The position numbers and the translations under genes were made by a program. A model generated the notes under the pieces. The model saw only the letters and a program-made list of their open reading frames with translations. It was not told the origin of the DNA and did not search any database. From a virus (Duplodnaviria > Heunggongvirae > Uroviricota > Caudoviricetes), in IMG/VR virus record IMGVR_UViG_3300031993_004551, positions 1 through 64,000 of that record: a stretch of 64,000 bases of DNA. One strand, written 5' to 3'. Positions 2,866 through 44,955 of this stretch are shown piece after piece (position 1 is the stretch's first letter; every line of letters begins with the position of its first letter).

Positions 2866-3065
2866 GTTTTTTATAACATAGCGACGAGAAAACTCACCCA
2901 TCTTTAGTGGGTGAGATGAAAGCCGCTTGACGATTTTCGGAAAATTTGCTACATATATAAACTGATATACGAAGGCAACTCGCACTTGTCGTCGTGGGAA
3001 AGTTTAAGATGTACTTAGGTACATTGTGTCCTACCGGAAGTGCGAGTTCCGGTAGGATTTTTCGT

Positions 3066-15117: not shown

Positions 15118-15132
15118 TTTTGCTATATTTGG
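15118..15132 (+). promoter_or_regulatory. promoter motif (plus-oriented TTTTGCTATATTTGG) 28 nt upstream of the ATG at 15161
   Basis: Motif match. Confidence 0.5.
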
Positions 15133-15160
15133 AATAACCCTCTTTACAAAGAGTGAACCT

Positions 15161-23995: not shown

Positions 23996-24010
23996 ACAAA
24001 TATAGCAAAA
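23996..24010 (-). promoter_or_regulatory. promoter motif (minus-oriented)
   Basis: CAAATATAGCAAAAA. Confidence 0.5.
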
Positions 24011-24011
24011 A

Positions 24012-25124
24012 TCACAGGGAAAACAGCTTCTTTATGCGAGTCCGTATACCGAATGTCGCATAAAGCCATATCAGCTTCCATTTGATTGCACAGTCTTCAG
24101 TTTTACGGCAAGCCGTGATGCACAGTTCGATTAGCGATTTTGCCAGTCTACTGTCATCCGTCTTAGTAGCATTACAGAATCCGATAAGGGAATCATCGGT
24201 AATTCCCGGGATAGACTTGGTTTTCTTGTCGAAATAGTTGTTGGATACCAACTCGATATACCACTGCCTTCCAGGGACACGGGCAACAATCGCATCATCA
24301 TTGGTGACCATTATGACATCGCCAAGGTCAAACTTCGTCATGTCGGATATCGTAATACCACCCAGCATATGAATATCATCATCCGCGTGGCATACTGCAT
24401 ATAAACCGGTCAAATTTGCCCCGTCGACTGAATAAGGTGGATTTGATACATTCTCAACATTTAAACCCATACCACGAGGAACACCATGATAATCGATGAT
24501 TGAATTTGTTATGTGACAGTTGCTCAGCTGAGCTGGCCCCAGAATCCTAGACGAGAAGAGAAAGCAGCCATCGACCATTGTCGCTTTATGCAATTCAGAA
24601 TCCTTGAACTCTGAATTATTGATACGCATATTATGCAAGTCAATGATTGGAACCTCGGTATCGCCAATCTTCGACCGATTAATGACGACTTTTCCAGATA
24701 TATGGACATTCATGCACCGTATCGTGCTCTGCTCCATCTTTAACGAGGCAGAGTAAAGAAGTGCACATTTTTCAGCAACCAATATCTTAGAGTCACGCAA
24801 GCAGATGTTGGTATGGAAATCAGTGCTACCGGAGACAATACCGTTAACCTCCGAATGACTAATATCCCCATAAAATCCACCCATTCGGCAATTAGTCAAT
24901 TTCGACCCGACAATATGCAAATCACCGTATACAGAAGTATTGACCAACATAGAGGTTTTATCCGCCCAAGAATCATCTTCCTGTGAAATGTTCGAATCTT
25001 CATCTATGATGGCGCCAAGGTCACCCTCGCTGAAAAACTGACCGTCCCTCAGCGCCTTTATGCGGCGTTCAAGTTGGCCGTTATCGTTCTTAACAGTAAC
25101 AATCTTGTATTTCTTCTTAAACAT
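24012..25124 (-). CDS. beta-helix-like repeat protein (possible glycan-modifying enzyme or fibre/spike)
   Basis: Periodic short repeats rich in N/G/S/I/V (GDISHSEVNGIVSGS..., NCHITNSIIDYHG...) suggest a parallel beta-helix. Adjacent to glf. Confidence 0.4.
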   Translation of the reverse strand: MFKKKYKIVTVKNDNGQLERRIKALRDGQFFSEGDLGAIIDEDSNISQEDDSWADKTSMLVNTSVYGDLHIVGSKLTNCRMGGFYGDISHSEVNGIVSGSTDFHTNICLRDSKILVAEKCALLYSASLKMEQSTIRCMNVHISGKVVINRSKIGDTEVPIIDLHNMRINNSEFKDSELHKATMVDGCFLFSSRILGPAQLSNCHITNSIIDYHGVPRGMGLNVENVSNPPYSVDGANLTGLYAVCHADDDIHMLGGITISDMTKFDLGDVIMVTNDDAIVARVPGRQWYIELVSNNYFDKKTKSIPGITDDSLIGFCNATKTDDSRLAKSLIELCITACRKTEDCAIKWKLIWLYATFGIRTRIKKLFSL

Positions 25125-25134
25125 ATACTTATCC

Positions 25135-26277
25135 TTACTTTAAGTAACAATCGGCAAGCTGCAAAGCCTGCGAAATAGTGTCGTCCATGTCGTTATAGCG
25201 GTACATCCCGAGGCGCCCCGTGGGTACCACATTGAGTGGGAGCATTTCACGGTACTTCCTGTACAGCTCGGAGCTTTCCTTGCTCTTCACCGGGTAGTAT
25301 ACCTCTGTATCACGGGTCATTTCCTGCGGGTACTCGAAGCTCACTATGGACTTGGATTCCATCATGGCAAGCTGGTTCCACGGCTCGAAATGCTTGTGCT
25401 CGATGGTACGGGTGTAGTCCGGGTGGCGCTGGGTATAGTTCACTACGGCAACACCCTGATAGTTGTCGGTATCCTTTTCCTCGGTAACGAACTTCAGGCT
25501 GCGATACGGGAGGTCACCGAGCGAATAGTCAAAGTATTCGTCAAGCCGCCCGGAGTAAAATACCAAATTAGCCCGGTCATTCCATTCGTCCTTGCACTTG
25601 AGGTAGTCCTCTCCGGTGATGACCTGTGCAACCCCGTCGAACATATTGGAAATCCACTGGGTGTACCCGTTCTTCGGGATTCCCTGGTAGATATCGTTAA
25701 AGTAATTATTGTCGAAGCGGAACCTGAGCGGGATGCGGGTAATGATGTTCGAGTCAAGCTCTTTACAAGACTTCCCCCACTGCTTCTCGGTGTATCCCTT
25801 GATGAACAGCTCGTAGATTTCCTCGCCGACCATCGAAAGCGCCCTTTCTTCGAGGTTGGTATAGACCAGCTTCTGGAACTTCTTGGCGGATTCCTCGATG
25901 CGCTTCTTGGCGTCGGCTACGCTGAGCACATCGGGCCAGAGTTTTGTGAAGGTGTTCATGTTGAACGGGAGGTTGAACACTTCCGGATTCGTGTGACCCT
26001 CGCGGGTAACCATAGCAACCGGGCTGTTCACGAACGGCATCATCTCGTCAAAAAGGTTGGCGAAATCCCATACCTTCTTCTCGGATGTATGGAAAATATG
26101 CGCACCGTACTTGTGGACATTGATAGTGCCCATCCGTTCAGTAGCACAGTTTCCGCCCAGTTCTCCGCGGCGTTCAATGACAAGGACTTTCTTGCCCGCG
26201 TTGCCGAACTTATTGGCCAACACCGCGTTAAACAGGCCGGCGCCGACAAAGATAGCATCAAACTTTTGTTCTGACAT
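25135..26277 (-). CDS. glf: UDP-galactopyranose mutase
   Basis: FDAIFVGAGLFNAVLANKFGNAGKKVLVIERRGELGGNCATE...INVHKYGAHIFHT matches the Glf flavin-binding N-terminus nearly motif for motif. Start at ATG 26277 (MSEQKFD). Confidence 0.9.
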   Translation of the reverse strand: MSEQKFDAIFVGAGLFNAVLANKFGNAGKKVLVIERRGELGGNCATERMGTINVHKYGAHIFHTSEKKVWDFANLFDEMMPFVNSPVAMVTREGHTNPEVFNLPFNMNTFTKLWPDVLSVADAKKRIEESAKKFQKLVYTNLEERALSMVGEEIYELFIKGYTEKQWGKSCKELDSNIITRIPLRFRFDNNYFNDIYQGIPKNGYTQWISNMFDGVAQVITGEDYLKCKDEWNDRANLVFYSGRLDEYFDYSLGDLPYRSLKFVTEEKDTDNYQGVAVVNYTQRHPDYTRTIEHKHFEPWNQLAMMESKSIVSFEYPQEMTRDTEVYYPVKSKESSELYRKYREMLPLNVVPTGRLGMYRYNDMDDTISQALQLADCYLK

Positions 26278-28312
26278 TGTAGCTCCTCTTTGGAATGACG
26301 GCATCGTGCGCCTCTGTCTTTACTTCGACTACAGTGGACTCTTCGTTCACCGGGGCCTCTACCGGCTTCGGTTTTTCCTTGACCGGCTCAGTAAAGAACT
26401 TGATGAGCGTATCGCGGTCCATCTTGGTAAGGTCGAGGTCGACTTCACCCTGGTAATCCGCATTGACCGGATGGAAGCCAAATAGCTTGAGAACAGACAC
26501 GAGGCTAATCGTGCGGCCAATCTGCATAATGAGGGAGTCTACCATATTTACGGTATCGCCGTTCTTCATCGGGGCGCGGTTGTTACCGGTAGCCTTACCG
26601 ATGAGCATCACGAAGGAATGGTTAGCGATAGCAAGCGTAGTCCTCTTGGCGGCAATCCTGGAGTCAAGCTGAACGATAATTTCCTCGGGCTTCACCATGC
26701 ACTCCCCGTCTGCCAACGGGCAGGCATCCTTCTTGGCGAAGAACATACGGTAGCGCCCCTGCTTGGCCGAACCGCTGAACTGGTGGAGATTGAAGATGAC
26801 GCCACCATTAGCATAGCCACCGAAATAGATACATTCCGTTGCTTCCGGGTCAGCATTCGTCATGTCCCCGGAGTAGCGCAGATGGAACATCTTCTTCTTC
26901 GGGTCCTCGCCCGGGATATCCGACTTGAAGGTAGTATTCCAGGAAACAGTAGTGCCTTCCAAAGTGGACGCCGAGAGGTCAAAGTCATGCGTACCCCATT
27001 CGTTTCTCCAGTATACCCCAATTACATTGTGCTCGTAGCGGCGAAGCTTGGTACCCATCGGGTAGTCGCCGACGAAGTTTTTTTCGGAGGTCGGGAGCGC
27101 GACCGCGATATTATCGTCAACCTTGATGAACCCAGTCTTCTTCTTTTTGGTGATGAAGTTCGAGATAGACGCGATGATAAGACCCTGCACACTCTGGAGC
27201 CAGAGCATGGATTCCGGGGAACGCTTCGGAGCGTATCCCTTGCGGACAAAGAGTCTACCCGTACGGATAGTGTACACGCTATTCTGGAGAGGTCTCGGGG
27301 CAAGACGGTCGGCGACCGCCTGAAGGAGCCTGAGACGGCGGAACATCGGAGTCTTTTCGAGGGCTTCGGCAACGGCGTCAAGCTTGGCACGGTCACCCGG
27401 AACAAAAATGCAGTCGAGAACGCCCGGTTCATAAGGCTGTTTCAACTTCTTGGCAAGGTGGCTGATGCGGTTGATTGCCATATGGACGGAGTACTTTTCG
27501 ACATCGCCGTAGTCCACCCCGCGGAGCGCCATGAAAAGCTTCTTGAAGCGGAAGTAAACGGTAGCAAGGATTTTATACTCGGTCTCACCAAGGTTCTCGA
27601 AAATCTCGAGCAGTTCTTCATCGTTCTCGGTCGCCCGAATCTCCTGGCATGTCTTCTTGGTGTTCACCAGCATCGCGCTTCCGGTCGCCACATACACGAG
27701 GTAGCGAACGAATTCCACCGGGTCCGTGGGAGTAGTTGCCGTATCCTGATAAATCAGGCAGCGCGCTTCCCTGTTGCGGATTTCTGAAATGTCGCACCCG
27801 CCGTGGGCCTTGATATAACCATAAACGAGAAGCACCGTATCGGCACTGAGGGCAATCCCGGAAGCAAGCATCTTGATGCAGCGCTGCTTGAGTTCATCTG
27901 CAGTGACCGAAGGAATCGTGGTAAGCTTGCTGAAGTCGATTACATAGGTTTCCTGTTCGATTACCTTTTCAGTTTCACGGTTATTCGGCACATAGCCGTT
28001 CCCACAGGCAAAGTCCGTCCCGTAGGTGGACATATAGTGTACCATCTGGTCGAATGCAAGCTGGACTTCGGAGCGGCTTTCGATGTCGTTCCAAGCCTTG
28101 TAGAAGGTGCTGTTCGGGTCGGTAGCTGTATCGAGGAGCCAGTCGCGCACCAGTTCGGTACACGACTCGGGAGCCACCATGAATCCCCTCATGCAGGCGA
28201 GGCGGTTCACCTCGTTAAAGCTTACAAGTTCCCCGCATTCCCCGGGAACTACACAGTGGAACAACTTCAAAAGCTCCACCGGCATCACATATTTTTCAAT
28301 AGCTTCGGACAT
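26258..28312 (-). CDS. hypothetical protein (684 aa)
   Basis: Long ORF. Start at the internal ATG 28312 (MSEAIEK). 20-nt overlap with glf. Confidence 0.55.
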   Translation of the reverse strand: MSEAIEKYVMPVELLKLFHCVVPGECGELVSFNEVNRLACMRGFMVAPESCTELVRDWLLDTATDPNSTFYKAWNDIESRSEVQLAFDQMVHYMSTYGTDFACGNGYVPNNRETEKVIEQETYVIDFSKLTTIPSVTADELKQRCIKMLASGIALSADTVLLVYGYIKAHGGCDISEIRNREARCLIYQDTATTPTDPVEFVRYLVYVATGSAMLVNTKKTCQEIRATENDEELLEIFENLGETEYKILATVYFRFKKLFMALRGVDYGDVEKYSVHMAINRISHLAKKLKQPYEPGVLDCIFVPGDRAKLDAVAEALEKTPMFRRLRLLQAVADRLAPRPLQNSVYTIRTGRLFVRKGYAPKRSPESMLWLQSVQGLIIASISNFITKKKKTGFIKVDDNIAVALPTSEKNFVGDYPMGTKLRRYEHNVIGVYWRNEWGTHDFDLSASTLEGTTVSWNTTFKSDIPGEDPKKKMFHLRYSGDMTNADPEATECIYFGGYANGGVIFNLHQFSGSAKQGRYRMFFAKKDACPLADGECMVKPEEIIVQLDSRIAAKRTTLAIANHSFVMLIGKATGNNRAPMKNGDTVNMVDSLIMQIGRTISLVSVLKLFGFHPVNADYQGEVDLDLTKMDRDTLIKFFTEPVKEKPKPVEAPVNEESTVVEVKTEAHDAVIPKRSYNVRTKV

Positions 28313-28359
28313 CGTAAATCCTCGTAGATACAAAAAAGTACCGGCCACAGCCGATACTT

Positions 28360-28374
28360 TAAATATAGCAAAAA
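28360..28374 (-). promoter_or_regulatory. promoter motif variant (TAAATATAGCAAAAA, minus-oriented) 47 nt upstream of the ATG at 28312
   Basis: Motif match with TTTA in place of TTTG. Confidence 0.4.
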
Positions 28375-28384
28375 TACGGAAACC

Positions 28385-28897
28385 TTACGGCTTCAGCATA
28401 TTCCTGACAGTGGTAATAGCCTTGCCGAGAAGGTTCTGACCGCGCCAGTTAGCCTCGTCGTCAATGCCGTTGGCACCCATAGGCATCAGGATTCCCCAAA
28501 TTCCGTCTACCGGGGAAGCCTCGACGAAAGTCTTCCCGTCGAAGCGAGGGTCGAGCAACTTCTCCAGCAAATCCGGATTCTGCCGGTACTTCTCGAGATT
28601 GACCTGAATCATTATGTCGTACCGTACCTTGGCCCACTTTTCGTTATCAAACGGCTTCACCTGACGGCCAAGCGACTTGGCATCCATCGGGGTAGCCGCC
28701 TTGAGTATGGCGTCCGCCGTCCTGGTGTCGCCGAAGTAGTTCGCCTTTTCCCACATGAACGCCTGTTCCGTGCAGAAGAAAGTTTCCGTCTTCTTGGTTG
28801 TGCCGTCGATATGGCTGCTGTAGGCGAAGCTGCACCGCCTGAAGTTGGATGGCCATTCCTTGTAGAAGAATACATGCGTATCAGTGATATCCAGCAT
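28385..28897 (-). CDS. NADAR-domain protein (YbiA/DUF1768-like)
   Basis: FFYKEWPSNF...FCTEQAFMWEKA...WAKVRYDIM...GIWGIL matches the NADAR fold signature. Start at ATG 28897. Confidence 0.72.
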   Translation of the reverse strand: MLDITDTHVFFYKEWPSNFRRCSFAYSSHIDGTTKKTETFFCTEQAFMWEKANYFGDTRTADAILKAATPMDAKSLGRQVKPFDNEKWAKVRYDIMIQVNLEKYRQNPDLLEKLLDPRFDGKTFVEASPVDGIWGILMPMGANGIDDEANWRGQNLLGKAITTVRNMLKP

Positions 28898-28905
28898 GGC
28901 TACCC

Positions 28906-29529
28906 CTATGCGTCGTTGATGACGCGGCTGAGCCACCGTCCGAAACGGTTATCGTACATGTTAAGTTCCGGGAGATGCTTGGCGATAGCATCGATGCAAT
29001 CGCTGACGCACTCGTCGATACCCTTACGGCCATCCACATAGACCACCGGCGTATTCCCGAGGAACTTCTCGGTCTCCGCATACGCGGTACGCAAATTCTC
29101 GAGACGCCCCGGAGTTTCCTTGAGCTTGGGTTCGCGGTCATAGCAGGTCTCGAGCGGGGTCTCCATGAAGATGTACAGGTCGGGCTGCTTGAAGATGTTG
29201 AAGTCCTGATACAGCTCCTCGCAGAACGAATAGATGCTCGGGGAGAATGCCTTGGCATAGGCAAGCCCGCTCCATAGGTACCTGTCGAGCAGAACCATAT
29301 TCCCGTTGTAGAACTTCTGCTGACGGAGACGGCCTTCGAGGAAAAACACCTCGCGCTTGGCGTCCTTGCCCTTGAACTCGTCCGAGTTGAGCCGGTCAGC
29401 CTCCTCGGTGGAAAACAGGGGTTCCTTGCTCCACTTGAATTCCGGGTAGCGCTTGGCGATAATCTTGGAAATCGTGGTCTTGCCGGAGTTGTCCACGCCT
29501 TCAAACACGATAAGCGGATTATGCTTCAT
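28906..29529 (-). CDS. tmk: thymidylate kinase-like P-loop kinase
   Basis: P-loop IVFEGVDNSGKTT. LDRYLWSGLAYAKA resembles the dTMP kinase DRY..S..AYQ motif. Start at ATG 29529 (MKHNPL), not 29652. Confidence 0.68.
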   Translation of the reverse strand: MKHNPLIVFEGVDNSGKTTISKIIAKRYPEFKWSKEPLFSTEEADRLNSDEFKGKDAKREVFFLEGRLRQQKFYNGNMVLLDRYLWSGLAYAKAFSPSIYSFCEELYQDFNIFKQPDLYIFMETPLETCYDREPKLKETPGRLENLRTAYAETEKFLGNTPVVYVDGRKGIDECVSDCIDAIAKHLPELNMYDNRFGRWLSRVINDA

Positions 29530-30382
29530 TCTTCGGGCCCTCCTTGGGCTTCTGTAAACGGGTCTCCACGAGGGCAGTGGTCGCGTCAGCGTGAACAATA
29601 TTATATCCCGGGTATTTCCCTGACGCATTAAAGTTCTTGGTGTACGGGTCAATCTGCATCTGGATGGCCGGGGCGGTATACTGGATAAGCCCGGTACGGT
29701 GGCAAATCTTGGTGTTTGCGTGGTGGTAATGGCCGCAGCAGACGGTAGTAACCTTAGCGCTCTTCATAAGCACCCGGACGAACTCAAAGTTTACCGGAAG
29801 CGTGAACTGTTCCTGGTTCATGAAGCGGTGGAACGGACGGACAAGCGGCATATGAGTGAACGCAGTCATCGTATGTTCGCCGACATCTGGCATTGCCAAC
29901 AGGCGGAACAGCCCTTCGACCGGATAGTCCTTATGCGCCGTATCGAGCAGGCATAACCTTGTATTGGAACTCTTGCCCTTGGCAAATGCAATAGCCTGTC
30001 CCGGGACATTAAACGAGCCGTCGAACCGAAATTCGAAAAATGCATTCTTATTGTAAAGGTATACGAACTTTTTACGGAACGCCGTAAATGCTTCCTCAAG
30101 AGCAGCACGGTTATCGTGGTTACCCGGGGTTACCAAGATTGCCGGCTGATACTCTTCAGGCAAGTCCCCCCCGAACGCCCGTTGCAATCCCTCGAGAAGA
30201 TTAGTGTAATCTTCGACCGTAGCGTCATCCACGAGGTCGCCGGTAAGGACGATAAGGTTGTAATGGCTGTACTGCCTTCCGGCATCAGCCAGTACGGCGT
30301 CCAGGTTTCCCTGGACATCGAACATACCCTTCTGGTCCCCCTTGAGGTGTATATCCGAAAGTTGAAGTATTAATGATTCCAT
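29519..30382 (-). CDS. calcineurin-like metallophosphoesterase (CpdA/Icc-type cyclic nucleotide phosphodiesterase-like)
   Basis: Motif series SDIHL, GDLVDD, GNHDN, GHYHH. Confidence 0.7.
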   Translation of the reverse strand: MESLILQLSDIHLKGDQKGMFDVQGNLDAVLADAGRQYSHYNLIVLTGDLVDDATVEDYTNLLEGLQRAFGGDLPEEYQPAILVTPGNHDNRAALEEAFTAFRKKFVYLYNKNAFFEFRFDGSFNVPGQAIAFAKGKSSNTRLCLLDTAHKDYPVEGLFRLLAMPDVGEHTMTAFTHMPLVRPFHRFMNQEQFTLPVNFEFVRVLMKSAKVTTVCCGHYHHANTKICHRTGLIQYTAPAIQMQIDPYTKNFNASGKYPGYNIVHADATTALVETRLQKPKEGPKNEA

Positions 30383-30401
30383 AGGTTTCTAGGTTCCTTA
30401 T

Positions 30402-30869
30402 TTATTTGTAAACAATCTTGATTACATGCGGTGTTTCCAAGAACACTCCCTTGATTATCTCGGAGACGACCTCCCATTCCAACCGGTCAAGCCCGCAGCC
30501 GATTTTCGGCATCACGATGACCTTAGGCTCGGCAAAGTTCATCGCAAGGTACTGCCGAAACGCAACCAGGGACTTAGTGAGCGTAAGATAGGTCGGCTTA
30601 TCCCACGAATGCTCCTTCGTTATCAAGTTAATAAAAGTCCCTTTATCTGTAACGACCGGCATCGCCATTCCCGGGAACAAGTCGATAGTATTGCCTTCCG
30701 GGTTATTGCTGCACCTGTACCGGCACTTCTTTTCCGCATTGTACATATCGCGGATGATTACCGGGGCTATTCCGCTGCCCCATGCGAGGTCGGCCGCGAT
30801 GCAATGGGCAATGATTACTCCGGTCGTATCGACGGTCGTGATATCACGCTTTTCTTCAAAATATCTCAT
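30402..30869 (-). CDS. macro-domain protein (ADP-ribose binding/processing)
   Basis: VIIAHCIAADLAWGSGIAPVI resembles the macro-domain phosphate-binding loop (VVNAAN...G.GIA). Size 155 aa. Confidence 0.55.
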   Translation of the reverse strand: MRYFEEKRDITTVDTTGVIIAHCIAADLAWGSGIAPVIIRDMYNAEKKCRYRCSNNPEGNTIDLFPGMAMPVVTDKGTFINLITKEHSWDKPTYLTLTKSLVAFRQYLAMNFAEPKVIVMPKIGCGLDRLEWEVVSEIIKGVFLETPHVIKIVYK

Positions 30870-31713
30870 CGGCTTTAATTTCCTTCGTTATCAGGCGCGA
30901 ATAAAGGTTCGCGTATGCTTTAAACTCCTCGGCATCGATGAACGGCCCAAGATTCACTACCGGGTTGTTATGCTCGTTCACCACCTCGAATACGCACTGC
31001 GGATGTTCTTTAGTAGCGCGGTAGTAGGTATTCTTCTTGAGCAGGAGAATCTTCCTCGTCGTATATGGCGTATTGGCATAGTTGATTGCCATGCCATAAT
31101 TGCCCTCAAATGCTATCCCGTAACCGTTGCCAAGCTTAAGTCTAGGGAACAACTTGCGGTCGGACGCATCCTTGCCGCATATTTTCTTAACCCATACAAG
31201 AAAACGGTAATCCTCGTCGTGGTAGGCATTCCATATCCGGGAAACCTCCTGCACACTCTCCACGCCCAGTTCGGAGTCTTCCGTTATCATATAACGGACG
31301 CCTTCCGGAATATCAACAATGCGAAGCGTATTGTTGTCGTTCAGCTTGTCGAGCATCTTGTAGTCGCCACCGAGAGCATCCACATAGGAAACAAGGGTGT
31401 CGCGCAGTTCGCTACCGGTAGTGTCAAAAGAAAGGTTCACCGATGCGGTATCGGGCACATCTCCATGTAGAGGATTACCGGAATCGTCATAGCAGGACTT
31501 TGTAGCGTTAAAGTGGACAAGCCAAGCCTTGATGAGCTTGCTCGAACCCCCGAAAACAGCCAAGGCTTTCCCGTTGGAGTCCGCAGGTAAAAAATAAGGG
31601 TCGGGGGATACGGTATCCCCTACCCTTTCGGCCAAATACATTGCCGCCCCGAGAGATATCTGGGGTACGCCGATACTTGTCGAGACGAGCACCTTTGGCA
31701 TTATACGCCCCAC
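30856..31713 (-). CDS. hypothetical protein (285 aa) inside the NAD island
   Basis: ORF overlapping both neighbours (14 and 13 nt). No recognisable motif. Confidence 0.5.
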   Translation of the reverse strand: MGRIMPKVLVSTSIGVPQISLGAAMYLAERVGDTVSPDPYFLPADSNGKALAVFGGSSKLIKAWLVHFNATKSCYDDSGNPLHGDVPDTASVNLSFDTTGSELRDTLVSYVDALGGDYKMLDKLNDNNTLRIVDIPEGVRYMITEDSELGVESVQEVSRIWNAYHDEDYRFLVWVKKICGKDASDRKLFPRLKLGNGYGIAFEGNYGMAINYANTPYTTRKILLLKKNTYYRATKEHPQCVFEVVNEHNNPVVNLGPFIDAEEFKAYANLYSRLITKEIKADEIF

Positions 31714-32486
31714 TTCGGAATACGGACGATATCGCGCTTGAACTGCGATGCCTTTACACGGGCCTGGATTTTACCCAAAACGCCAATATTAAGTGTTTCC
31801 GGATTATTGACATAAGTCCGGATGTCATCGTAAGTAAAGCCGAGGTTGTCCTCGTCCGTCTTACCACTGAGGCCGTCGGACGGAGCCTTGTAGACAAGAT
31901 GTTCCGGGAGGCCAAGCGCCATTCCCAGCTTGCAGACATCCTGCTTGAACAGGGTACCAATCGGAGCCAAATCGCCAGCAAGGTCGCCCCACAAGGTACA
32001 GTATCCGACGAGAGCTTCTGAGAAGTTTCCCGTGCAGAGAACGCGGCCTTCACCGAGCGCCTGTGCAACCATGTACAGCTTTTCCATACGGATACGCGGG
32101 GCGAGATTGATTTCTGCCTGACGGTCATACATGTGCTTCGTACCGAGACCCTTGATGAGTTCAATCTGCTTCAGCCCAATCTGGTAATCGTCGTGGATGT
32201 TGATTGTAAGCGTACGGGTAATCCCGGCAGCTACTGCACAATTGTGAGCATCTTCAAGGTCTGGCTGGACTCCGTTCGGGAGGAACACGCCGATTACCTT
32301 GTCCGCGCCTAAAGTCCTCGTGGCAAGCTTGCCGACAACCAAGGAGTCGGTTCCGCCGGACATACCGAGAACGAGAAATTCGCCGTGATTTTCTTGCATC
32401 GTGAGCTTAATCCACTGTCCGATGCTATCGGCCATTTCGATGAACTTGGCGGTTTCTTCTTCAGTCATTTTATCTGGCGTGAGCAT
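31701..32486 (-). CDS. nadE: NH3-dependent NAD+ synthetase
   Basis: PP-loop LVLGMSGGTDSLV. Downstream LCTGNFSEALVGYCTLWGD is characteristic of NadE. Start at ATG 32486 (TAATG coupling to pncA). Alternative ATG at 32467. Confidence 0.85.
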   Translation of the reverse strand: MLTPDKMTEEETAKFIEMADSIGQWIKLTMQENHGEFLVLGMSGGTDSLVVGKLATRTLGADKVIGVFLPNGVQPDLEDAHNCAVAAGITRTLTINIHDDYQIGLKQIELIKGLGTKHMYDRQAEINLAPRIRMEKLYMVAQALGEGRVLCTGNFSEALVGYCTLWGDLAGDLAPIGTLFKQDVCKLGMALGLPEHLVYKAPSDGLSGKTDEDNLGFTYDDIRTYVNNPETLNIGVLGKIQARVKASQFKRDIVRIPKWGV

Positions 32487-33106
32487 TATGCGGCTCCTTT
32501 GTAAATAGTGGGGACGACATCGCAGAGCATGGAACGGGCAAGCGTGAATGCCGCTTCCTGAGCCTGCTTGTTCTGTTCGGCATTGATGAAGCAAGCCGCA
32601 GTAGCACCGTCGACCACCTCAATTTTTGCATCCGGGAACCAAGCGCGGTCGATTGCCCAGTTGGAGGCATCACAGATGTCCGTGCAGGTACCGGTATAGC
32701 GAATGACGATGTTCTTGCCACGGGTAAGTGCGGCAACGGCATCCTGGTCCGTAGAGTCGATATCGAACATAACCTTCGGCCAGTTGATGAAACCAAAGTT
32801 ATGCTTGTCGATGATGATGGCATTCTTCTTCTTGAGAGCAGCCATGATTCTCGGCTCGATTTCCCATTCCGGTGTGCCGTAGACACAGTGAATCGGGAGA
32901 CGCTTGCCTTCAATAGACTGGTAATAGGAATCGTCGTCGAAGTGCGTATCGCGGGTGGCGATAATGATGCCGTCCCACGCCTCGATTTCGGCGATTACGG
33001 CGTCAATGATGGCTTCTGCAGCCGGATTCTTGAGGACTCCGGTTATGAATCCTATCTGCATGTCGATTACTTTGAGAATCTTGAGAGCTTTATCTATCAG
33101 GTTCAT
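32486..33106 (-). CDS. pncA: nicotinamidase (isochorismatase/cysteine hydrolase family)
   Basis: VIDMQIGF (D), conserved K region, GTCTDICD catalytic Cys. Confidence 0.82.
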   Translation of the reverse strand: MNLIDKALKILKVIDMQIGFITGVLKNPAAEAIIDAVIAEIEAWDGIIIATRDTHFDDDSYYQSIEGKRLPIHCVYGTPEWEIEPRIMAALKKKNAIIIDKHNFGFINWPKVMFDIDSTDQDAVAALTRGKNIVIRYTGTCTDICDASNWAIDRAWFPDAKIEVVDGATAACFINAEQNKQAQEAAFTLARSMLCDVVPTIYKGAA

Positions 33107-33121: not shown

Positions 33122-34777
33122 TTATAAGCGTATTCCGCCGAAAAGGCCACACTGGTCTACTCGGTCAAGCGGTTGTTTCTTGATTCCATCCGGGAACTTC
33201 CTAATGTAGTCGTCGAGGATGCGGTTGTGGTGGAAAGCCAGCTGCATCTTCTGCGCATCGGAGATAGCAACCCACTGGACTTCCTTGGCGTCATCGGCAG
33301 GTTCAGCCCCGATGATATGCGGAATTTCAACGGCGAGACCCACATCGTATGCGCCGTGGTCTGGCTTGATGCCTGCGCGGGGGTCCGTCGGATAGTAGAC
33401 GCCGACACACTCGACTTCGGACTTGTCGATTGTGGTGATACTCGTCTCTTCCTTGACCTCGCGTAGTGCGGCTTCCTCGATATCCTCACCCGGGTCGGCG
33501 AATCCGCCCGGGAAGCACCAGTAGCCCATATACGGGCCATACTTCCTGCGGACAAGAAGGACGAATCCCTTGGAAACAATCAGAGTAGTCGCCGTCACGG
33601 AGAATGACGGGTAGTTATCCGGGTTTGCACGGGCAATCGCTTCCTTCTCGGCGGCATCGTATTCTTCCTGGGTAACCTGCCCGTACAACTTATTGTCAAC
33701 GATGTACTCGAGGGCTTCGCCCGGAACATCGGTACCGGCATACATCGGGTTGTGCAGGAGATTGAACCGTGCCTGCGTAGAGGATGTCGCCGGTATCCTG
33801 GCATTGACAATCCTGAGACGCTCCCCGACATCATCGTTGGGACGGTTAATCCTCCGGTCATTTAACGGAATGTCATTGCGCCCGAACACCATGAAGGAGA
33901 ACTGGGTAAGCAATTCCTCGCTATGCTCCCACCGGTGGAAATCGTGGAGCATACGCCATTCATCGGCGCCCATGCAGATGGTGACCTTCGACGGGTCAAG
34001 TTTGAGGGTTTCGGTGAGGAACTGGTATGTGCGCACCGGCTGTTCGACAATCTGAACAACATTGTCATCCTCGGCCCAACGGTCGGAATAACGACAAATT
34101 TCCTGAAATACTGTACGGAGCATGCGCTTTCGTGTGCCTGCCCTTACAGTATATTTCTTTTCGTCATTATTACTTACCATAAGGATGAGTGCAACCGGAA
34201 GAGGTCTATCGATATCAACCGGCTTAAACCTTTCGTTGGCAATCGCAATCATCTGGTTCAACAGGGCACGGATAATTTCCTTGTGACCGGTTGTCACCGG
34301 GTCGAACGCTCCTCCGTAAACAAGGATGTGCTTCGCATTGCGAACATTGTCATACAGAGTGACCTTATCCTTGACCTCAGCCGGCTTATCATGTAACGAC
34401 ATAACTGCAAACGACTTCTTTGCAAAGGACTTGGCAACTTCAACAGACTTGTTAAACACCGTGTAAAACAGGTCGCCCGGTGTTAAATCGATATCACACG
34501 ACTGGAGCACCTTAGAAGTCCTCTGGCGGCCCAAATCGTTAAGTTGTCCGGCAGCTTCTGCAATTCCATAGGCTTCCTTGCGGTCGACAAAGCGGAAATT
34601 GTTGCTATCTTCGCCGGCAATAAAGCCAGTACAGCTAGGTACATCGCTTGCAACCCATTCGTAGTCATCCTTGAGAGACATCAGGTTCATAGATGCATCG
34701 CCGTGGTCCTTCGCGACTGCAAACGGCTGACTGAAATTAGGGGCAAATCCCTTGAATGCACAGATAATCTTTTCCAT
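33122..34777 (-). CDS. nadM: nicotinamide/nicotinate mononucleotide adenylyltransferase fused to Nudix hydrolase, with extra N-terminal domain
   Basis: YGGAFDPVTTGH is the (H/T)xGH nucleotidyltransferase motif. C-terminal Nudix box GGFADPGEDIEEAALREVKEETSI. About 160-aa unassigned N-terminal region. Confidence 0.82.
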   Translation of the reverse strand: MEKIICAFKGFAPNFSQPFAVAKDHGDASMNLMSLKDDYEWVASDVPSCTGFIAGEDSNNFRFVDRKEAYGIAEAAGQLNDLGRQRTSKVLQSCDIDLTPGDLFYTVFNKSVEVAKSFAKKSFAVMSLHDKPAEVKDKVTLYDNVRNAKHILVYGGAFDPVTTGHKEIIRALLNQMIAIANERFKPVDIDRPLPVALILMVSNNDEKKYTVRAGTRKRMLRTVFQEICRYSDRWAEDDNVVQIVEQPVRTYQFLTETLKLDPSKVTICMGADEWRMLHDFHRWEHSEELLTQFSFMVFGRNDIPLNDRRINRPNDDVGERLRIVNARIPATSSTQARFNLLHNPMYAGTDVPGEALEYIVDNKLYGQVTQEEYDAAEKEAIARANPDNYPSFSVTATTLIVSKGFVLLVRRKYGPYMGYWCFPGGFADPGEDIEEAALREVKEETSITTIDKSEVECVGVYYPTDPRAGIKPDHGAYDVGLAVEIPHIIGAEPADDAKEVQWVAISDAQKMQLAFHHNRILDDYIRKFPDGIKKQPLDRVDQCGLFGGIRL

Positions 34778-34781: not shown

Positions 34782-34813
34782 CAAATATAGCAAAAATCCC
34801 CGTTTCCGGGGAT
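34782..34813 (-). promoter_or_regulatory. overlapping terminator hairpin (34796-34813) and promoter motif (34782-34796). ATG of nadM lies 4 nt downstream
   Basis: ATCCCCG-TTT-CGGGGAT hairpin. Its 3' T-run is the TTTTT of TTTTTGCTATATTTG. Confidence 0.55.
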
Positions 34814-34823
34814 TCTTTTAAGT

Positions 34824-36074: not shown

Positions 36075-37492
36075 TAGGCAGCCACCTCGAACTCGTCGAT
36101 GATATTACCCTTCGGGTCAAACTTAACCAGTTTTCCACCGTAGATAATCTCATCGAGCTGCTTACGGCTGAAGCGGTCAATCGGAGCCCAGTTGTATGCG
36201 AGCTTTGTATCGATGATTGTCTTCTGGTCGGTGCACATGCACTTGCCTTCACTGTCGGAAAGCTTGACGACATGCTGGCCGTTGCATTCGGTGACCTTCA
36301 TCACGATGGGCAACGGCTGCTTTGCACCCGGCTTGCAGCAGATTGTGGCAGAGAGGAATGTACCGATACCGAATGCGACATTGATATCCTTGTAGAACTC
36401 CCAGGCAATCTTGAGTGCCTTGTCCGCATCCAAGCTGTCGCTCCAGCAGGCCGTCTTGGACTTCGGGTCGACCTTTCCACGCCTGTAGTGGTCGATGAGC
36501 ATGTGCCCCCACTTGAACGGGTCGCCGCTGTCGTGGCGGCAGCCGTCGTAGAGCTTCATGAAGGACACGTCGAAGTCGCGGAGGAACGCAGCGAAACCGA
36601 AGTTGTCGCTCAAGGCGATACCGAGGGAACCGCGGAACTCGTCGTCCCAGTTGGAAAGGACCCACTTCTGGGCGTCCTTCAGGCGAATGCCCTTTGCCTG
36701 TGCGATTGCGTAAAGCTCGTGGGCAAATGTGCCAATCGCTTTACAGTCGCACTTGATTGCGAGCCAGACGTTGGATGTTCCCACGAATGCCGGGCAGAAC
36801 TTGAGGAGGTACATGACCATGTACTCGTTCCACTCGTTGCTGATGCCACGGCGGACACCGAAGTCGGAAACCGTGAAGCGGCATCCTTCGCGCCAAGCCT
36901 TGTTCCACTTGACGACGACTTCCTCGAGGTTCTTCTTGGCGTATTCCCAGTCGAACTCCTCGCCCTCGAAGTAGAGCTGCTGCACAATCTGCAGCACATA
37001 TATTTCGAACCAGAACACATCGAGCTGCGGACCTTCGGCAACGATGCGGACGCCGCCGTTCACGGACGGGTCGGCGAATACGCGGATGTACTTGCGGTCA
37101 AGCTGGAGCTTCTCGAGGTAACGGATGAAGTCATCGCTGAGCCACGGGAGCTTCTTGCGGATGCCCTCGATTTCTTCCTTGGTGTAGCGCAAGGTGCAGA
37201 GCCAGTCGAGTTCGGCACAGATGTCCTCAATGAGATAAGTGAGGTCTACGCCCTTCGTACGGAGGCAGAATTCCCATTTAGCCTTATCATTATAACAGCG
37301 ATGCTTGTAGAACTGACCCATTGAGTATTTATAAGTATCTGTTTGGGTCAGATGCTCAATGATATGCTTATCCGGGTTGCGCCGGGTAAACTTCTTGATA
37401 GCCTTCGTGATAATCTTCTTGCGCTTCGGACGGGTCTTGAACGGGTCAATTCCCTTCTTGAGCAAAGCCTTGTCACTTAGTTTCCGTGTCAT
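36074..37492 (-). CDS. pncB: nicotinate phosphoribosyltransferase
   Basis: TDTYKYSMGQ, WFVGTSN, GTFAHELY, LGIALSDNFGFAAFLRDF, GCRHDSGDP and KVTECNGQHVVKLSDSEGK all match E. coli PncB blocks. Extra 40-aa basic N-terminus. Confidence 0.9.
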   Translation of the reverse strand: MTRKLSDKALLKKGIDPFKTRPKRKKIITKAIKKFTRRNPDKHIIEHLTQTDTYKYSMGQFYKHRCYNDKAKWEFCLRTKGVDLTYLIEDICAELDWLCTLRYTKEEIEGIRKKLPWLSDDFIRYLEKLQLDRKYIRVFADPSVNGGVRIVAEGPQLDVFWFEIYVLQIVQQLYFEGEEFDWEYAKKNLEEVVVKWNKAWREGCRFTVSDFGVRRGISNEWNEYMVMYLLKFCPAFVGTSNVWLAIKCDCKAIGTFAHELYAIAQAKGIRLKDAQKWVLSNWDDEFRGSLGIALSDNFGFAAFLRDFDVSFMKLYDGCRHDSGDPFKWGHMLIDHYRRGKVDPKSKTACWSDSLDADKALKIAWEFYKDINVAFGIGTFLSATICCKPGAKQPLPIVMKVTECNGQHVVKLSDSEGKCMCTDQKTIIDTKLAYNWAPIDRFSRKQLDEIIYGGKLVKFDPKGNIIDEFEVAA

Positions 37493-38699
37493 TTTCGTTA
37501 TCCCTGTTGATGTTTTCCTGTTTAAATTCCTGCATTTTCAGATTCTCCAAGGTTACCTTGCGCATACCCTTGTAGATACTCTCGCGGATGGCCATCCAGC
37601 CTTCCTCGGATATCGAACCATTCAATGCCCACCGTCCCGCCGAAGCGGCCGCGCCGATGACCGTCGGGTAATCGTCGAACTCCTTGCGAGCCAGCTCGTA
37701 AACCGCCCGGCCGGCGTCAACCTTGTCGCTAACACATCTGTCGGCGAATCCCTGTATACGAGTATACAAGCTGTCGAAGATTTCGCCGAAGCTTTTCAGG
37801 AACGCCTTAATGTCCACCAGTTCCTCCGGGACGCTCTTGACGGTTTCGTCCGGGAACTTCCCGTCCTTCCACGAGAATATATCCAAGAGGTTCCTCGGGG
37901 TGAGGCTGTGGAACAGCTTCTGCGCGGCAAGGAACTCCGGACCCTTGAGCTTCACCTTGAACCCGTCGCCGTAGGTAAGGACGAGCCCTTCCTTGCTTGC
38001 CGGCAGCTTCTTGACATACTCGCAGGTAGCCTCGAAGGACGGAAGCTCGATGCGCTCGGCGAGAGGCACTCCCATCGCCTTGGCAATCATCTTCAGGTTC
38101 TCGTAGGAATATTCCCTGCCGGTAGCATTCAGGATTACCCCGGTAAGCACACAGGCCTCGTAGTCGTACCTGATAGGATGGACATCCTCCTTGCAGAGAA
38201 TCTCGAACATATAGGTACATCCGGAAGCCATGTAGTTCTGGATTCCCCTCTCGCGGAGCCACTTTTCGGCCCATTCGCCCTGGAAAGCCGTGAATGCACC
38301 CGAAGTGGTTACCAAAAGATTCCCGTCGACGATACCCGCGATGCACAGCGAACCGTCAAGCTTGTCGGTCGCGCTGAACCATCCTTTCGGGTCGAACTTC
38401 GGCTCGTACCCGGGAATCTTGCTGAGCAGGTCGAACAGCGAAGTATGCTGCATCGTCTCGCTATAGAGTTCCCCGAAGTTGAAGAACTTGGACCACGGGC
38501 GCAGTACGCACTCGCCGTCGCTGACCCTAAATACATGCCCCCTCGAGTTGAGGGTGATTTCGTCCCATCGCTGGTCGTATATCGTGTACTCGGTATACTT
38601 GAACTTGACATATTTCCTGTCAGGCGAATATGTCATGATTAAGTCCGGGCCGTCGGCACGGGCGATATACTCGGAAAGCGGGGGTAATTTTTCTACCAT
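37473..38699 (-). CDS. RNA ligase, T4 Rnl1 family
   Basis: LNSRGHVFRVSDGECVLRPWSKFFNFGE resembles T4 Rnl1 [31 protein letters not shown]. Motif I TDKLDGSL resembles KEDGSL. Confidence 0.85.
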   Translation of the reverse strand: MVEKLPPLSEYIARADGPDLIMTYSPDRKYVKFKYTEYTIYDQRWDEITLNSRGHVFRVSDGECVLRPWSKFFNFGELYSETMQHTSLFDLLSKIPGYEPKFDPKGWFSATDKLDGSLCIAGIVDGNLLVTTSGAFTAFQGEWAEKWLRERGIQNYMASGCTYMFEILCKEDVHPIRYDYEACVLTGVILNATGREYSYENLKMIAKAMGVPLAERIELPSFEATCEYVKKLPASKEGLVLTYGDGFKVKLKGPEFLAAQKLFHSLTPRNLLDIFSWKDGKFPDETVKSVPEELVDIKAFLKSFGEIFDSLYTRIQGFADRCVSDKVDAGRAVYELARKEFDDYPTVIGAAASAGRWALNGSISEEGWMAIRESIYKGMRKVTLENLKMQEFKQENINRDNENDTETK

Positions 38700-41724: not shown

Positions 41725-42438
41725 TTATTCCAGCGCGACTACCGGATGTCCCTCGCACAGCCCGTGGTAGACATGGTTGGCCGTGTAGAGCTTTTCCGCC
41801 GGTATCGGGGCGTAGGCGACTTCCCAGGACACATTGTTCTGCATCTTGAAGTCCTTCCACGGGAGGGAGCTGAACCGTTCCTCCTCATGGGTATGCCCGT
41901 GTACAAGCACGGTCTTCGCCGGGTCGAGCTTCTGCCGGTACGCCATCAGGTTCCTGGAATCCGGACGGTCCACCTGACGCTTCGAGAAGAACGGAAAGTG
42001 CTGACAGAAATACACCTTGTCGTGCCAACGCAGTACGGCGTAGTCCCTGATGTCGACCAGGCCGCCATGTACGCTCTTGTCGTGGTTCCCGCGGATGTAC
42101 AGCTTGATACCCGGGAGCGGACCGTACAGAGCGTTGAACTTCTCGTCGAATTCCTCCTGCGTATCGGAGTGCCCCATCATGAAATCACCGAGGAACACCA
42201 CGACATCATCCGGCCGAATCAGCGTCATCCACTTATTGCGCATGTCGTCGTTCATTTCCTTAGTAGTCTGGTATGTCCGGATACGCTCGAAGTGCTTCGG
42301 GGACGCCGGAGTGAGCTTTGCGTGATTGAAATGGGTATCCGATATGAAGAACAGCCTGGAGCTATCCGGGATGACCTGGGAGAAATATGTTCGTTCGGAC
42401 TGTTCGTCCGGAATTGAAAGATTTAAAACTTCAGACAT
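41725..42438 (-). CDS. calcineurin-like metallophosphoesterase (lambda phosphatase-like)
   Basis: ISDTHFNH, GDFMMG, GNHD, VHGHTH. Start at ATG 42438 (MSEVLNL). Confidence 0.7.
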   Translation of the reverse strand: MSEVLNLSIPDEQSERTYFSQVIPDSSRLFFISDTHFNHAKLTPASPKHFERIRTYQTTKEMNDDMRNKWMTLIRPDDVVVFLGDFMMGHSDTQEEFDEKFNALYGPLPGIKLYIRGNHDKSVHGGLVDIRDYAVLRWHDKVYFCQHFPFFSKRQVDRPDSRNLMAYRQKLDPAKTVLVHGHTHEEERFSSLPWKDFKMQNNVSWEVAYAPIPAEKLYTANHVYHGLCEGHPVVALE

Positions 42439-43666
42439 TTTTATTTTCCTCTGGGAGTCTTCGGCGTTCCCGAAGTTCTCCCGGTGTGACACGGAATACC
42501 GGCAAGCTCGAAAACTCGTCTGGGAGCGACGCCAGCAAGTCGATGAACATTTCATCGAGCTGCTCGTCGGTTACCGGGTCGTGGAGATATTTAGAATCCT
42601 TGAAGCATTCCTCAACTTCCTTCACAAGGGAATCGCTCAGGTTCATCATATCTTCGTATGAATATGTACCCTTCTTGATACTGAGAAGGTAATCGCGCTT
42701 GTCGCTGCAGTCTACCGTCACTTTTCCGGTAAGCGCGATGTTCTTAGCTGTAAGCAGGAGACGGATGCAGTGCATCGTATTCTTTGCATCGTATCCCTTG
42801 CCGTGTTTTTCGGTTTCCGCATACCTGACCTCGTTGCGTTCCTTCTTTACCCAGTTCCAGTAATGGGTATGTTCCTTGCAGTCATGAGAGAACGCATCTG
42901 GGTTGAATGTCAGGAAGGCAACCGGATTGAGACCCTTCGGAATATGCTTGGCAAGCTGGATATCGCAGGCCTTCTTTTCGTCCGTGACGACGCCGTATGC
43001 CCAGCGCCATTTGTGTTCAGGAATTTCCTCGGGCGGACGGTCTGGCTGCAACAAGGAATAGCTAAGTCCTTCAGCTTTATCCTGATAGTACAGCGCATAG
43101 GTATTCTTGCAGTGGTCAATCTTTGCCAATCCGTACCACTTCTGGTCTTGTTTTGCCAGAGTATCCTGCTCAGCAAGGAACTGCTTGAACGGCTTGCACT
43201 TGATGTCCTGGCCGTACACATAACAGTAATCGAGAACCTGCGGAGCTTCCTCGGGGCACGGGTTATTGAATTTCTTGTTGAGGCCGTACGCGCGGCTCAA
43301 CTGAGTCTTGGCATATTCCTGGTAGGACTTGAGGACTCGGGTTGTAACCCAGATATCCTTCGGAATCGCGTCGAAAAGTTCCTTACCCTTGAGTATGCAC
43401 CTTTCGGGGCTATTGAGCAACTCCAGAGCGTTCGGGTTGCCCTGCTGCAAATACTGGAGGAAGTTGGAGAGTTCCCAGTATTCGGTGTTATTCTTGTCGT
43501 CAGCTACACGCATATCCGGCTTGAACGACACCCTTTCCTTCATCGGCAACACATAGACGCCGCGGACATCAGTATCAGATGTCTCGGTGGCAAGTCCGAA
43601 AGACTGGCTTCCCACGACAGCTTCCATGAGTATCCAGCCCTTTTCCTTGAGTTCTTCAATAGTCAT
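42431..43666 (-). CDS. Pol-beta superfamily nucleotidyltransferase (411 aa)
   Basis: VVGSQSFGLATETSDTDVRGVY matches the minimal NTase signature [GS]x9-13Dx[DE]. Confidence 0.6.
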   Translation of the reverse strand: MTIEELKEKGWILMEAVVGSQSFGLATETSDTDVRGVYVLPMKERVSFKPDMRVADDKNNTEYWELSNFLQYLQQGNPNALELLNSPERCILKGKELFDAIPKDIWVTTRVLKSYQEYAKTQLSRAYGLNKKFNNPCPEEAPQVLDYCYVYGQDIKCKPFKQFLAEQDTLAKQDQKWYGLAKIDHCKNTYALYYQDKAEGLSYSLLQPDRPPEEIPEHKWRWAYGVVTDEKKACDIQLAKHIPKGLNPVAFLTFNPDAFSHDCKEHTHYWNWVKKERNEVRYAETEKHGKGYDAKNTMHCIRLLLTAKNIALTGKVTVDCSDKRDYLLSIKKGTYSYEDMMNLSDSLVKEVEECFKDSKYLHDPVTDEQLDEMFIDLLASLPDEFSSLPVFRVTPGELRERRRLPEENKNV

Positions 43667-43682: not shown

Positions 43683-43716
43683 CAAATATAGCAAAAAGAC
43701 CGCCGAAGCGGTCTTC
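43683..43716 (-). promoter_or_regulatory. promoter motif (43683-43697) overlapping a terminator hairpin (43696-43715). 16 nt to the ATG at 43666
   Basis: AAGACCGC-CGAA-GCGGTCTT hairpin directly abuts CAAATATAGCAAAAA. Confidence 0.5.
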
Positions 43717-44901: not shown

Positions 44902-44955
44902 AGATAAGCAAAATGTCCACAGAACGCTTAATTTGCCCGTCAGCATTCCGTGGAC

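Follow-up and report, generated by a model that had tools for sequence, protein, structure and literature searches.

Phage NADAR proteins (AdfN) strip guanine-linked ADP-ribose and defeat DarTG1 (PMC11825919); proteins of several NADAR subfamilies act on ADP-ribosylated guanine in vitro, with an effect that varies in vivo (PMC11125620). Thymine ADP-ribosylation is reversed by macrodomains of the TARG1 class (PMC8501950), and AdfM, a stand-alone phage macrodomain protein, defeats DarTG2 (PMC13309987). Macrodomain, NADAR and Nudix genes co-occur in large phages, an association that is statistically supported and was proposed to counter ADP-ribosylation signals (Iyer et al., PMC9503650). Clusters that rebuild nicotinamide adenine dinucleotide (NAD+) have also been described. 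Gut jumbo phages with predicted Bacteroidota hosts ("NAD-jumbo phages") carry pncB-nadD-nadE clusters, and the paper that reports them makes no mention of NADAR, macrodomains or phosphoesterases (PMC11662467). RyDEP, a cyclic ADP-ribose (cADPR) glycosidase that degrades an immune signal, adjoins the NAD+-rebuilding operon NARP1 (PMC13232231). The present study concerns a stretch of 64,000 nt (positions 1 to 64,000 of IMG/VR record IMGVR_UViG_3300031993_004551; hereafter the window), in which a block of four minus-strand genes, at 28385-30869, encodes a macrodomain protein, a metallophosphodiesterase (PDE), a thymidylate kinase (Tmk)-like protein and a NADAR protein. Its source is a giant metagenomic phage of the animal gut or rumen; the host, we infer, is probably a Bacteroidota species.

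As in the NAD-jumbo clusters and the NARP1/RyDEP arrangement, a NAD+-rebuilding cluster of a large phage here adjoins enzymes for ADP-ribose processing or immune signals. Unlike NARP1, however, the window follows the Preiss-Handler route, with a PncA-like protein, nicotinate phosphoribosyltransferase (NAPRTase), nicotinamide mononucleotide adenylyltransferase (NMNAT) and NadE, together with a Nudix domain; and the accessory enzymes, unlike those of either described arrangement, are a macrodomain protein, NADAR and a metallophosphodiesterase. NARP1 consists of Adps and Namat, and NARP2 of Nampt and Nmnat. No Adps (PRPP-synthetase-like), Namat, Nampt or RyR-domain protein was detected among the neighbours, which sets the locus apart from both. 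The combination of NADAR and macrodomain with NAD+ recycling largely repeats published concepts; the PDE clade alone is new.

Results

The NADAR and macrodomain proteins

Four tightly spaced open reading frames (ORFs) occupy the block, separated by 19 nt between the macrodomain and PDE genes and by 8 nt between the kinase and NADAR genes, while the end of the PDE gene and the start of the kinase gene share 11 nt (Table 1). Independent gene calls on identical public contigs (ENA, 109 kb; JGI sample 3300028887, 33.5 kb) agree with this layout. An earlier note on this DNA had assigned the four domains from the letters alone. Profile searches left the NADAR, Tmk and PDE assignments in place, and the macrodomain was recovered through human TARG1 (4j5q), with E-values that lie well outside the range of chance matches.

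The NADAR protein aligns with positions 12-163 of the 163 in PF08719 (E = 7e-41; 140.6 bits, gathering threshold 35.1) and scores 125 bits against TIGR02464 (cut-off 73.7). Its closest solved structure is that of the oomycete protein PnNADAR (8bau, E = 2.9e-17), a member, like DarG1 and YbiA, of the NADAR family. A glutamate and a lysine seven residues apart, E44 and K51 in CTEQAFMWEK, align with SEQYFMKRK of 8bau and correspond to E36/K43, the catalytic pair of AdfN-T4 (PMC11825919). Like the AdfN proteins of T4 (gp30.3), Bas32 and Bas60, the window protein stands alone, is about 170 aa long and has the E..K(+7) pair; unlike T4 AdfN, it sits in a NAD salvage unit. An upstream GTG at 28936 was judged a less likely start than the ATG at 28897. 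Because NADAR homologues are present in 726 phage records, this is an ordinary protein of its kind. Over nearly its full length it is 37-39% identical to the NADARs of 145-150 kb Escherichia and Klebsiella phages, which are presumably of the Vequintavirinae type, the group of the tested AdfN-Bas60. By its sequence the protein falls in a class for which removal of ADP-ribose from DNA and activity against DarT have been demonstrated, and it most likely takes ADP-ribose off guanine in phage DNA (DarT1-type damage).

The macrodomain protein matches human TARG1/OARD1 through residues 19-148, some 130 residues (4j5q, E = 6e-15), and PHROG 335 with E = 1.6e-20. K85, in the string LITKE, and D128, in GCGLDRL, align with the lysine of "ITK" and the aspartate of "GCGLD" in TARG1, the latter being presumably D125. 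TARG1 K84 is equivalent to the catalytic lysine K80 of DarG, and TARG1 rescues DarT toxicity (PMC8501950). In sequence the protein is far closer to eukaryotic TARG1 than to DarG (E = 0.04), and its match to the NCBIfam DarG model extends over just positions 70-146 of the 338 (28.7 bits, cut-off 250). It is not a DarG2: the C-terminal DarT-binding domain is absent, and no toxin gene lies nearby. As in AdfM and the isolated DarG macrodomain, the domain stands alone, in a protein of 155 aa that is 63-81% identical across sister phages. These alignments place it in the TARG1/DarG (ALC1-like) class with catalytic lysine and aspartate retained; it most likely takes ADP-ribose off thymine (DarT2-type damage) or hydrolyses other ADP-ribose esters. 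The assignment of both proteins to ADP-ribose-removing classes in the earlier note is thus upheld by their catalytic residues and by their likeness to AdfN, TARG1/DarG and AdfM.

The NAD+ recycling unit and its promoter-like motif

NAD salvage genes, which the earlier note had placed beside the block, are found immediately upstream of it. The first gene of the unit encodes an NMNAT-Nudix fusion that matches the NadM-Nudix NCBIfam models below their cut-offs. It is followed by an isochorismatase-family protein, a probable nicotinamidase in light of its gene context, then by NadE and by a conserved protein of 281 aa (unk281) that invariably follows NadE in sister phages. A 416-aa protein (unk416), NAPRTase and a T4 Rnl1-like RNA ligase are encoded farther upstream on the same strand. 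Together, NMNAT-Nudix, the nicotinamidase-like protein, NadE and the NAPRTase just upstream would make up a Preiss-Handler route from nicotinamide back to NAD+, with free ADP-ribose being split by the Nudix domain.

The limits of the unit were drawn from a 13-nt intergenic motif, TTTTGCTATATTT(G), of which the window holds 13 exact copies and 21 copies with at most two mismatches, against 1.9 expected. Exact copies include those at 6835-6847, 9587-9599, 12148-12160, 23998-24010, 28361-28373, 34783-34795, 43684-43696 and 52269-52281. In every case the motif lies 5-60 nt upstream of a start codon, often after a GC hairpin. It contains TAnnTTTG, which we take to be the Bacteroidota -7 promoter consensus, and it recurs at related loci; it probably serves this phage group as promoter, and it gives a hint at the host. 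Minus-strand copies at 38744, 34795, 28373 and 24010 split the region into three units: Rnl1-NAPRTase-unk416; NMNAT/Nudix-PncA-NadE-unk281-macrodomain-PDE-Tmk-NADAR; and unk684-Glf-unk370 (where Glf is UDP-galactopyranose mutase). The block is the distal half of the second, eight-gene unit, within which (between 34783 and 28373) there is no further copy of the motif and at each end of which stands a hairpin. Identical limits are seen in the related phage loci L004 and L005 (labels of this form denote the loci compared with the window). From the spacing of the motif, the block appears to be co-transcribed with the NAD+ recycling genes.

The phosphodiesterase

The PDE matches PF00149 (E = 1.4e-12; 48.9 bits, cut-off 21.5) and has all five kinds of metal motif: D10-x-H12, G48-D49-x-x-D52, G87-N88-H89-D90, H177 and G217-H218-x-H220. 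In 44 homologues D10, H12, G48, D49, G87, N88, H89, D90, H177, G217, H218 and H220 are invariant; D52 is only nearly so in the clade alignment. An AlphaFold model built from these 44 sequences is confident (pLDDT 94.9), and a Foldseek search with it returned Rv0805 first (E = 8.5e-14) and GpdQ second (E = 4.9e-13). The same order emerged from a fold comparison, in which Rv0805 (26.2) and GpdQ (24.9) were followed by Lmo2642 (22.1), ADPRibase-Mn (2nxf; 19.2), SbcD/Mre11 (about 17) and the protein-phosphatase types (about 10). The earlier note had identified a class III cyclic-nucleotide phosphodiesterase from the motifs. These are present, and Rv0805 is the nearest fold; however, the DxH/GDxxD/GNHD/GHxH set marks the whole calcineurin-like superfamily, so that the motifs alone do not show class III, and the protein fails the CpdA equivalog NF008359 (52.3 bits against 225). 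"CpdA-like" is therefore fair as a name for the structural branch, since Rv0805 and GpdQ lead the fold comparison. Relative to solved class III enzymes and their relatives (Rv0805, CpdA/Icc, GpdQ, Lmo2642), the PDE is 16-21% identical and 20-40 residues longer, while keeping, like them, all five motifs. Two further motifs, F-T-H-M-P-x-x-x-P-F-H-R-F-M-N and A-P-A-x-Q-x-Q-x-D-P, are invariant and specific to its clade. The PDE is most likely an active two-metal enzyme nearest to Rv0805, CpdA and GpdQ. Among small nucleotide phosphodiesters, its most likely substrates would be a cyclic nucleotide and a cyclic phosphate or pyrophosphate derived from ADP-ribose.

Some 44 metagenomic proteins match the PDE at 30-39% identity, with 35 representatives at E<=1e-30. 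No match was obtained when 50,697 cultured-phage records were searched by tblastn with the PDE, or when cultured-phage records were searched with the DNA of the whole block. Members of the clade occur on 12 IMG/VR contigs (14-355 kb, 7 of them exceeding 200 kb) and, among 185,579 species genomes, on just three short contigs of rumen or cecum metagenome-assembled genomes; the other cellular matches are ordinary CpdA/Icc proteins (22-28% identity). A profile search of 1.84 billion representatives returned no domain fusion in the clade, to sensor or ADP-ribosylation domains included. The PDE thus represents a small clade confined to phage-like contigs, and it is the only new element of the block.

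It is also the fastest-evolving enzyme of the unit, with its active site kept. Identity to L004 is 64% for the PDE and 81-92% for the neighbouring enzymes; identity to L005 is 38% for the PDE, 70% for the macrodomain protein and 63% for NADAR. Among three close strains its nonsynonymous rate (dN 0.074-0.083) is the highest of the identifiable enzymes of the block, with a ratio to the synonymous rate (dN/dS) of 0.14-0.59. Such a rate would fit either an arms race or relaxed constraint. With dN/dS below 1, we make no claim of positive selection.

Destruction of host second messengers, whether 3',5'- or 2',3'-cyclic nucleotides, cyclic oligonucleotides or cADPR isomers (through their pyrophosphate), would make the PDE a new anti-defence enzyme. 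The confinement of the clade to phage-like contigs speaks for this idea, and the top dN, the dN/dS of up to 0.59 and the 64% identity to L004 fit an arms race, although relaxed constraint explains the rate equally well. A signal-degrading enzyme beside a NAD+-rebuilding operon also has a precedent (PMC13232231). We nevertheless consider the proposal doubtful. None of the results points to a substrate, and none makes the link to cADPR-type signals that the earlier note had entertained. The protein is far below the CpdA equivalog cut-off, the promiscuous diesterase GpdQ is an equally close fold, and the clade is free of the fusions to sensor or ADP-ribosylation domains mentioned above. The literature that we searched describes no metallophosphoesterase as an anti-signalling factor; one enzyme of this kind, from a mycobacteriophage, acts on host DNA (PMC12287305). 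A more specific form of the proposal, which we put forward only tentatively, is that the PDE founds a phage-only, Rv0805-like clade that destroys an immune signal derived from ADP-ribose or a cyclic-nucleotide signal, the products feeding the co-transcribed Nudix and Preiss-Handler genes. The candidate chemistry would be cutting of the pyrophosphate of 2'/3'cADPR or opening of a ribose cyclic phosphate. If true, this would be the first enzymatic anti-signalling factor of the metallophosphoesterase type in phages, coupled in an operon to de-ADP-ribosylases acting on DarT1 (guanine) and DarT2 (thymine) products.

The same proteins might instead serve small-molecule clean-up. Macrodomain, PDE, Nudix and NADAR would then process soluble ADP-ribose derivatives back toward NAD+ synthesis rather than repair DNA: the PDE could open ADP-ribose 1'',2''-cyclic phosphate (Appr>p), the macrodomain dephosphorylate ADP-ribose 1''-phosphate or deacylate O-acyl-ADP-ribose, and the Nudix domain split ADP-ribose, the substrates being by-products of the phage's NAD-consuming enzymes or of host toxins or signals. 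Enzymes of the Rv0805 type attack cyclic phosphodiesters formed on vicinal ribose hydroxyls, and the chemistry needed for Appr>p resembles theirs; PHROG 335, the family of the macrodomain protein, is annotated "phosphatase"; TARG1 was originally deposited as an O-acetyl-ADP-ribose deacetylase; and one unit is common to the block, the Nudix domain and the NAD genes, with the RNA ligase unit directly upstream. We think this account improbable. We know of no cyclic-phosphate activity for the PDE clade, and the window yielded no KptA/Tpt1, sirtuin or ADP-ribosyltransferase that could supply Appr>p. In addition, every phage NADAR tested by experiment is a guanine-DNA de-ADP-ribosylase (PMC11825919, PMC11125620), and thymine-linked ADP-ribose is a substrate of the TARG1 class of macrodomains (PMC8501950).

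The Tmk-like kinase

The kinase matches PF02223 (E = 1.8e-14; 54.3 bits, cut-off 27) and PHROG 761, and all 15 of its 15 solved-structure matches are thymidylate kinases aligned over their full length. A P-loop (G11-x4-G16-K17-T18) and the DRY motif (D82-R83-Y84) are present. The score against the TIGR00041 equivalog is below cut-off (57 against 83.25 bits), and the arginine of the usual Tmk "REP" motif is replaced by lysine, so the substrate may be a modified deoxynucleoside monophosphate. In L005 the slot is filled by a guanylate kinase (Gmk)-like protein without homology to the Tmk (E = 0.05, confined to the P-loop). Membership of the Tmk family and the occurrence of a non-homologous gene in the slot of a sister phage exclude the kinase from the ADP-ribose arm in which the earlier note had included it. 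It would act as a (deoxy)nucleoside monophosphate (NMP) kinase in nucleotide supply, outside ADP-ribose chemistry.

In many lineages the PDE is followed by a P-loop NMP kinase, which is of the Tmk-like kind in the window, L004, L020 and L022 and of the Gmk-like kind in L005, L014, L015 and L023. In L020 (11264-12223) and L022 (11087-12013), which are more distant relatives, the Tmk-like kinase is extended by about 110 aa at its N terminus and comes after the PDE and a promoter motif. A small membrane protein is found after the PDE instead in L014, L015, L017, L019 and L023.

This recurrence raises the question of whether PDE and kinase form a pair for nucleotide salvage or for healing RNA ends with 2',3'-cyclic phosphates, apart from ADP-ribose: the P-loop kinase would add a phosphate to the nucleotide or RNA ends that the PDE had produced or trimmed, in the service of phage nucleotide supply or, with the RNA ligase nearby, of tRNA repair. 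Bacterial Pnkp pairs a metallophosphoesterase with a P-loop kinase, and in L012 the PDE gene is the last of the Rnl1 RNA-ligase unit. The kinase, however, is a bona fide Tmk by its structural matches and DRY motif, not a polynucleotide kinase, and the alternation of non-homologous Tmk and Gmk proteins in one slot resembles exchangeable cargo more than a partner that the PDE requires. A better candidate for RNA repair is the second metallophosphoesterase of the window, the gene of which overlaps that of RlaP (Table 1). We rate such a pair as quite unlikely. Its Pnkp-like version was down-weighted because the kinase matches Tmk only and the PDE is far nearer to Rv0805 than to the protein-phosphatase types, the branch to which, on our assumption, lambda phosphatase and the phosphatase domain of Pnkp belong.

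Conservation in related phages

The block is intact in near-identical contigs and in L004, and its order is kept in L005 with the exchange in the kinase slot. The order NMNAT-PncA-NadE-unk281-macrodomain-PDE is kept in L004, L005 and L009, although the PDE is just 36-64% identical there. In L009 the macrodomain and PDE genes are followed, where kinase and NADAR would be, by a TnpB insertion beside a 64-aa NADAR remnant. L012 has the PDE gene next to NAPRTase and the macrodomain gene in a unit of its own, and the unit of L022 is NMNAT/Nudix-PncA-PDE, with the macrodomain gene 5 kb away. In L010 and L013 only a PncA-like gene is found near the PDE, 3-5 kb upstream on the opposite strand. No NAD gene, macrodomain or NADAR was detected near the PDE in L007, L011, L014-L021 and L023, tblastn and HMM searches agreeing. 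About 6 of 17 lineages thus keep the PDE beside NAD or ADP-ribosylation genes, in three arrangements; as a sign of a link between them, this distribution is suggestive but not compelling. The idea of one four-gene arm, put forward in the earlier note, is not supported by this pattern: the four genes form a block in the closest relatives only, and elsewhere the PDE mostly occurs with neither macrodomain nor NADAR nearby.

Such a distribution could also mean that four independent auxiliary genes are held together by family-wide synteny, with no functional coupling. The four-gene block is restricted to near relatives of the window and L005, NADAR is absent from most PDE neighbourhoods, L012 and L022 have the macrodomain gene in a different unit from the PDE, and the region is reshuffled by TnpB insertions and recombination. 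Against this, 4 of the 8 genes of the unit and the adjacent NAPRTase act on NAD or ADP-ribose, the PDE stands beside NAD genes in three different arrangements, and the association itself is known and statistically supported (PMC9503650). We give this explanation little credence.

TnpB/IS605-family genes occur at three places in the window (Table 1) and also in L009, L010, L012, L014 and L015. Between the NMNAT-Nudix gene and its counterpart in L004 (4944-6599) the synonymous rate (dS) is 0.23, as compared with 0.8-2.1 for neighbouring genes, which suggests recent recombination of that single gene between lineages. In L007, 4 kb from the PDE, 14169-15486 encodes a CoaE-like protein and CoaD (phosphopantetheine adenylyltransferase), which would carry out late steps of CoA synthesis; these were considered as an alternative NAD module and rejected, being CoA rather than NAD enzymes.

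Other features of the window

Table 1. Position, strand and supporting evidence of genes and motifs in the window.
Feature	Position	Strand	Evidence or remark
Promoter-like motif with 11-bp hairpin (28335-28360) and motif (28361-28373)	28335..28373	-	directly after NADAR stop; end of unit
NADAR, 170 aa from ATG at 28897	28385..28897	-	PF08719, 8bau
Thymidylate-kinase-family P-loop kinase, 207 aa	28906..29529	-	PF02223, PDB matches, P-loop/DRY
Binuclear metallophosphodiesterase, 287 aa, Rv0805/GpdQ/CpdA branch	29519..30382	-	PF00149, motifs, fold
Macrodomain, stand-alone, 155 aa, TARG1/DarG (ALC1-like) class	30402..30869	-	TARG1 4j5q, PHROG 335, partial DarG matches
Conserved protein unk281, 281 aa	30856..31701	-	end overlaps macrodomain start
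NadE, NAD synthetase	31701..32486	-	PF02540 E 6.7e-48; TIGR00552 174 bits
Isochorismatase-family, probable nicotinamidase (PncA-like)	32486..33106	-	PF00857 E 2e-8, 35 bits (cut-off 27)
NMN/NaMN adenylyltransferase-Nudix fusion, first gene of unit	33122..34777	-	PF00293 + PF01467
Promoter-like motif	34783..34795	-	just after GC hairpin 34792-34817, 5 nt before NMNAT-Nudix ATG
TnpB/IS605-family gene	2994..4337	+	
Unit of 684-aa protein, Glf and 370-aa variable protein	24012..28312	-	
RNA ligase	37473..38699		
Second metallophosphoesterase	41725..42555	-	Metallophos_2; overlaps end of RlaP gene
RlaP nucleotidyltransferase	42431..43666	-	"RNA repair pathway"
TnpB/IS605-family gene	43771..44946	-	
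Phage IF3	51552..52241	-	IF3_N E 3.6e-25; IF3_C E 1.2e-7
RNA ligase	52326..53669		
TnpB/IS605-family gene	62142..63941	-	

RlaP, the Metallophos_2 protein and the two RNA ligases suggest a separate RNA-repair set. Besides a phage-encoded translation initiation factor IF3, the 34 scanned ORFs include PhoH, a ClpP-like protein and another Nudix protein. The unit downstream of the block may be glycan-related; homologues of its 684-aa protein are found in Synechococcus phages S-CRM01 and S-CBWM1 and in the gut phage Phass-1. Positions 58001-60000 have a G+C content of 0.36, against about 0.50 elsewhere.

Discussion

The reading best supported by these data is that NADAR and the macrodomain protein provide an ADP-ribose-removing counter-defence alongside NAD+ recycling. 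Taken as a whole, the eight-gene unit would, on balance, serve to defend a giant gut phage against host immunity that spends NAD+, a view that we favour with some reserve.

Several observations weigh against it. The macrodomain protein matched no Pfam family at E<=0.01, hence no Pfam macrodomain family. Nor is it close to the AdfM of chimalliviruses, as the tblastn matches listed include no PhiKZ-type phage. Macrodomains of the TARG1 class act, moreover, on ADP-ribose linked to protein, RNA and small molecules. NADAR exceeds the cut-off of TIGR02464, which models the YbiA-type N-glycosidase of riboflavin intermediates, and some NADARs active in vitro give no protection in vivo (PMC11125620). 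Terminator-like hairpins, such as those that flank the unit, are overall no commoner in the window than expected by chance (19 found, 16.6 expected). Finally, the PDE of most lineages has no NAD gene, macrodomain or NADAR within 10 kb, and adjacency is weak evidence, as phage genes are co-directional and syntenic anyway.

The promoter-like motif is a practical guide to the limits of transcription units in these phages. Rebuilding of NAD+ and stripping of ADP-ribose are already established in phages; the locus extends both to uncultured phages of the rumen and gut, and to a macrodomain of the TARG1 type. If the activities proposed here hold, a single operon would join the rebuilding of NAD+, the de-ADP-ribosylation of guanine and of thymine and, possibly, the degradation of a nucleotide signal. 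The PDE clade is small, fast-evolving and found on phage-like contigs only, and the model of the protein is confident enough to guide mutagenesis. Its substrate, once found, could add an enzyme class to the counter-defences of phages.

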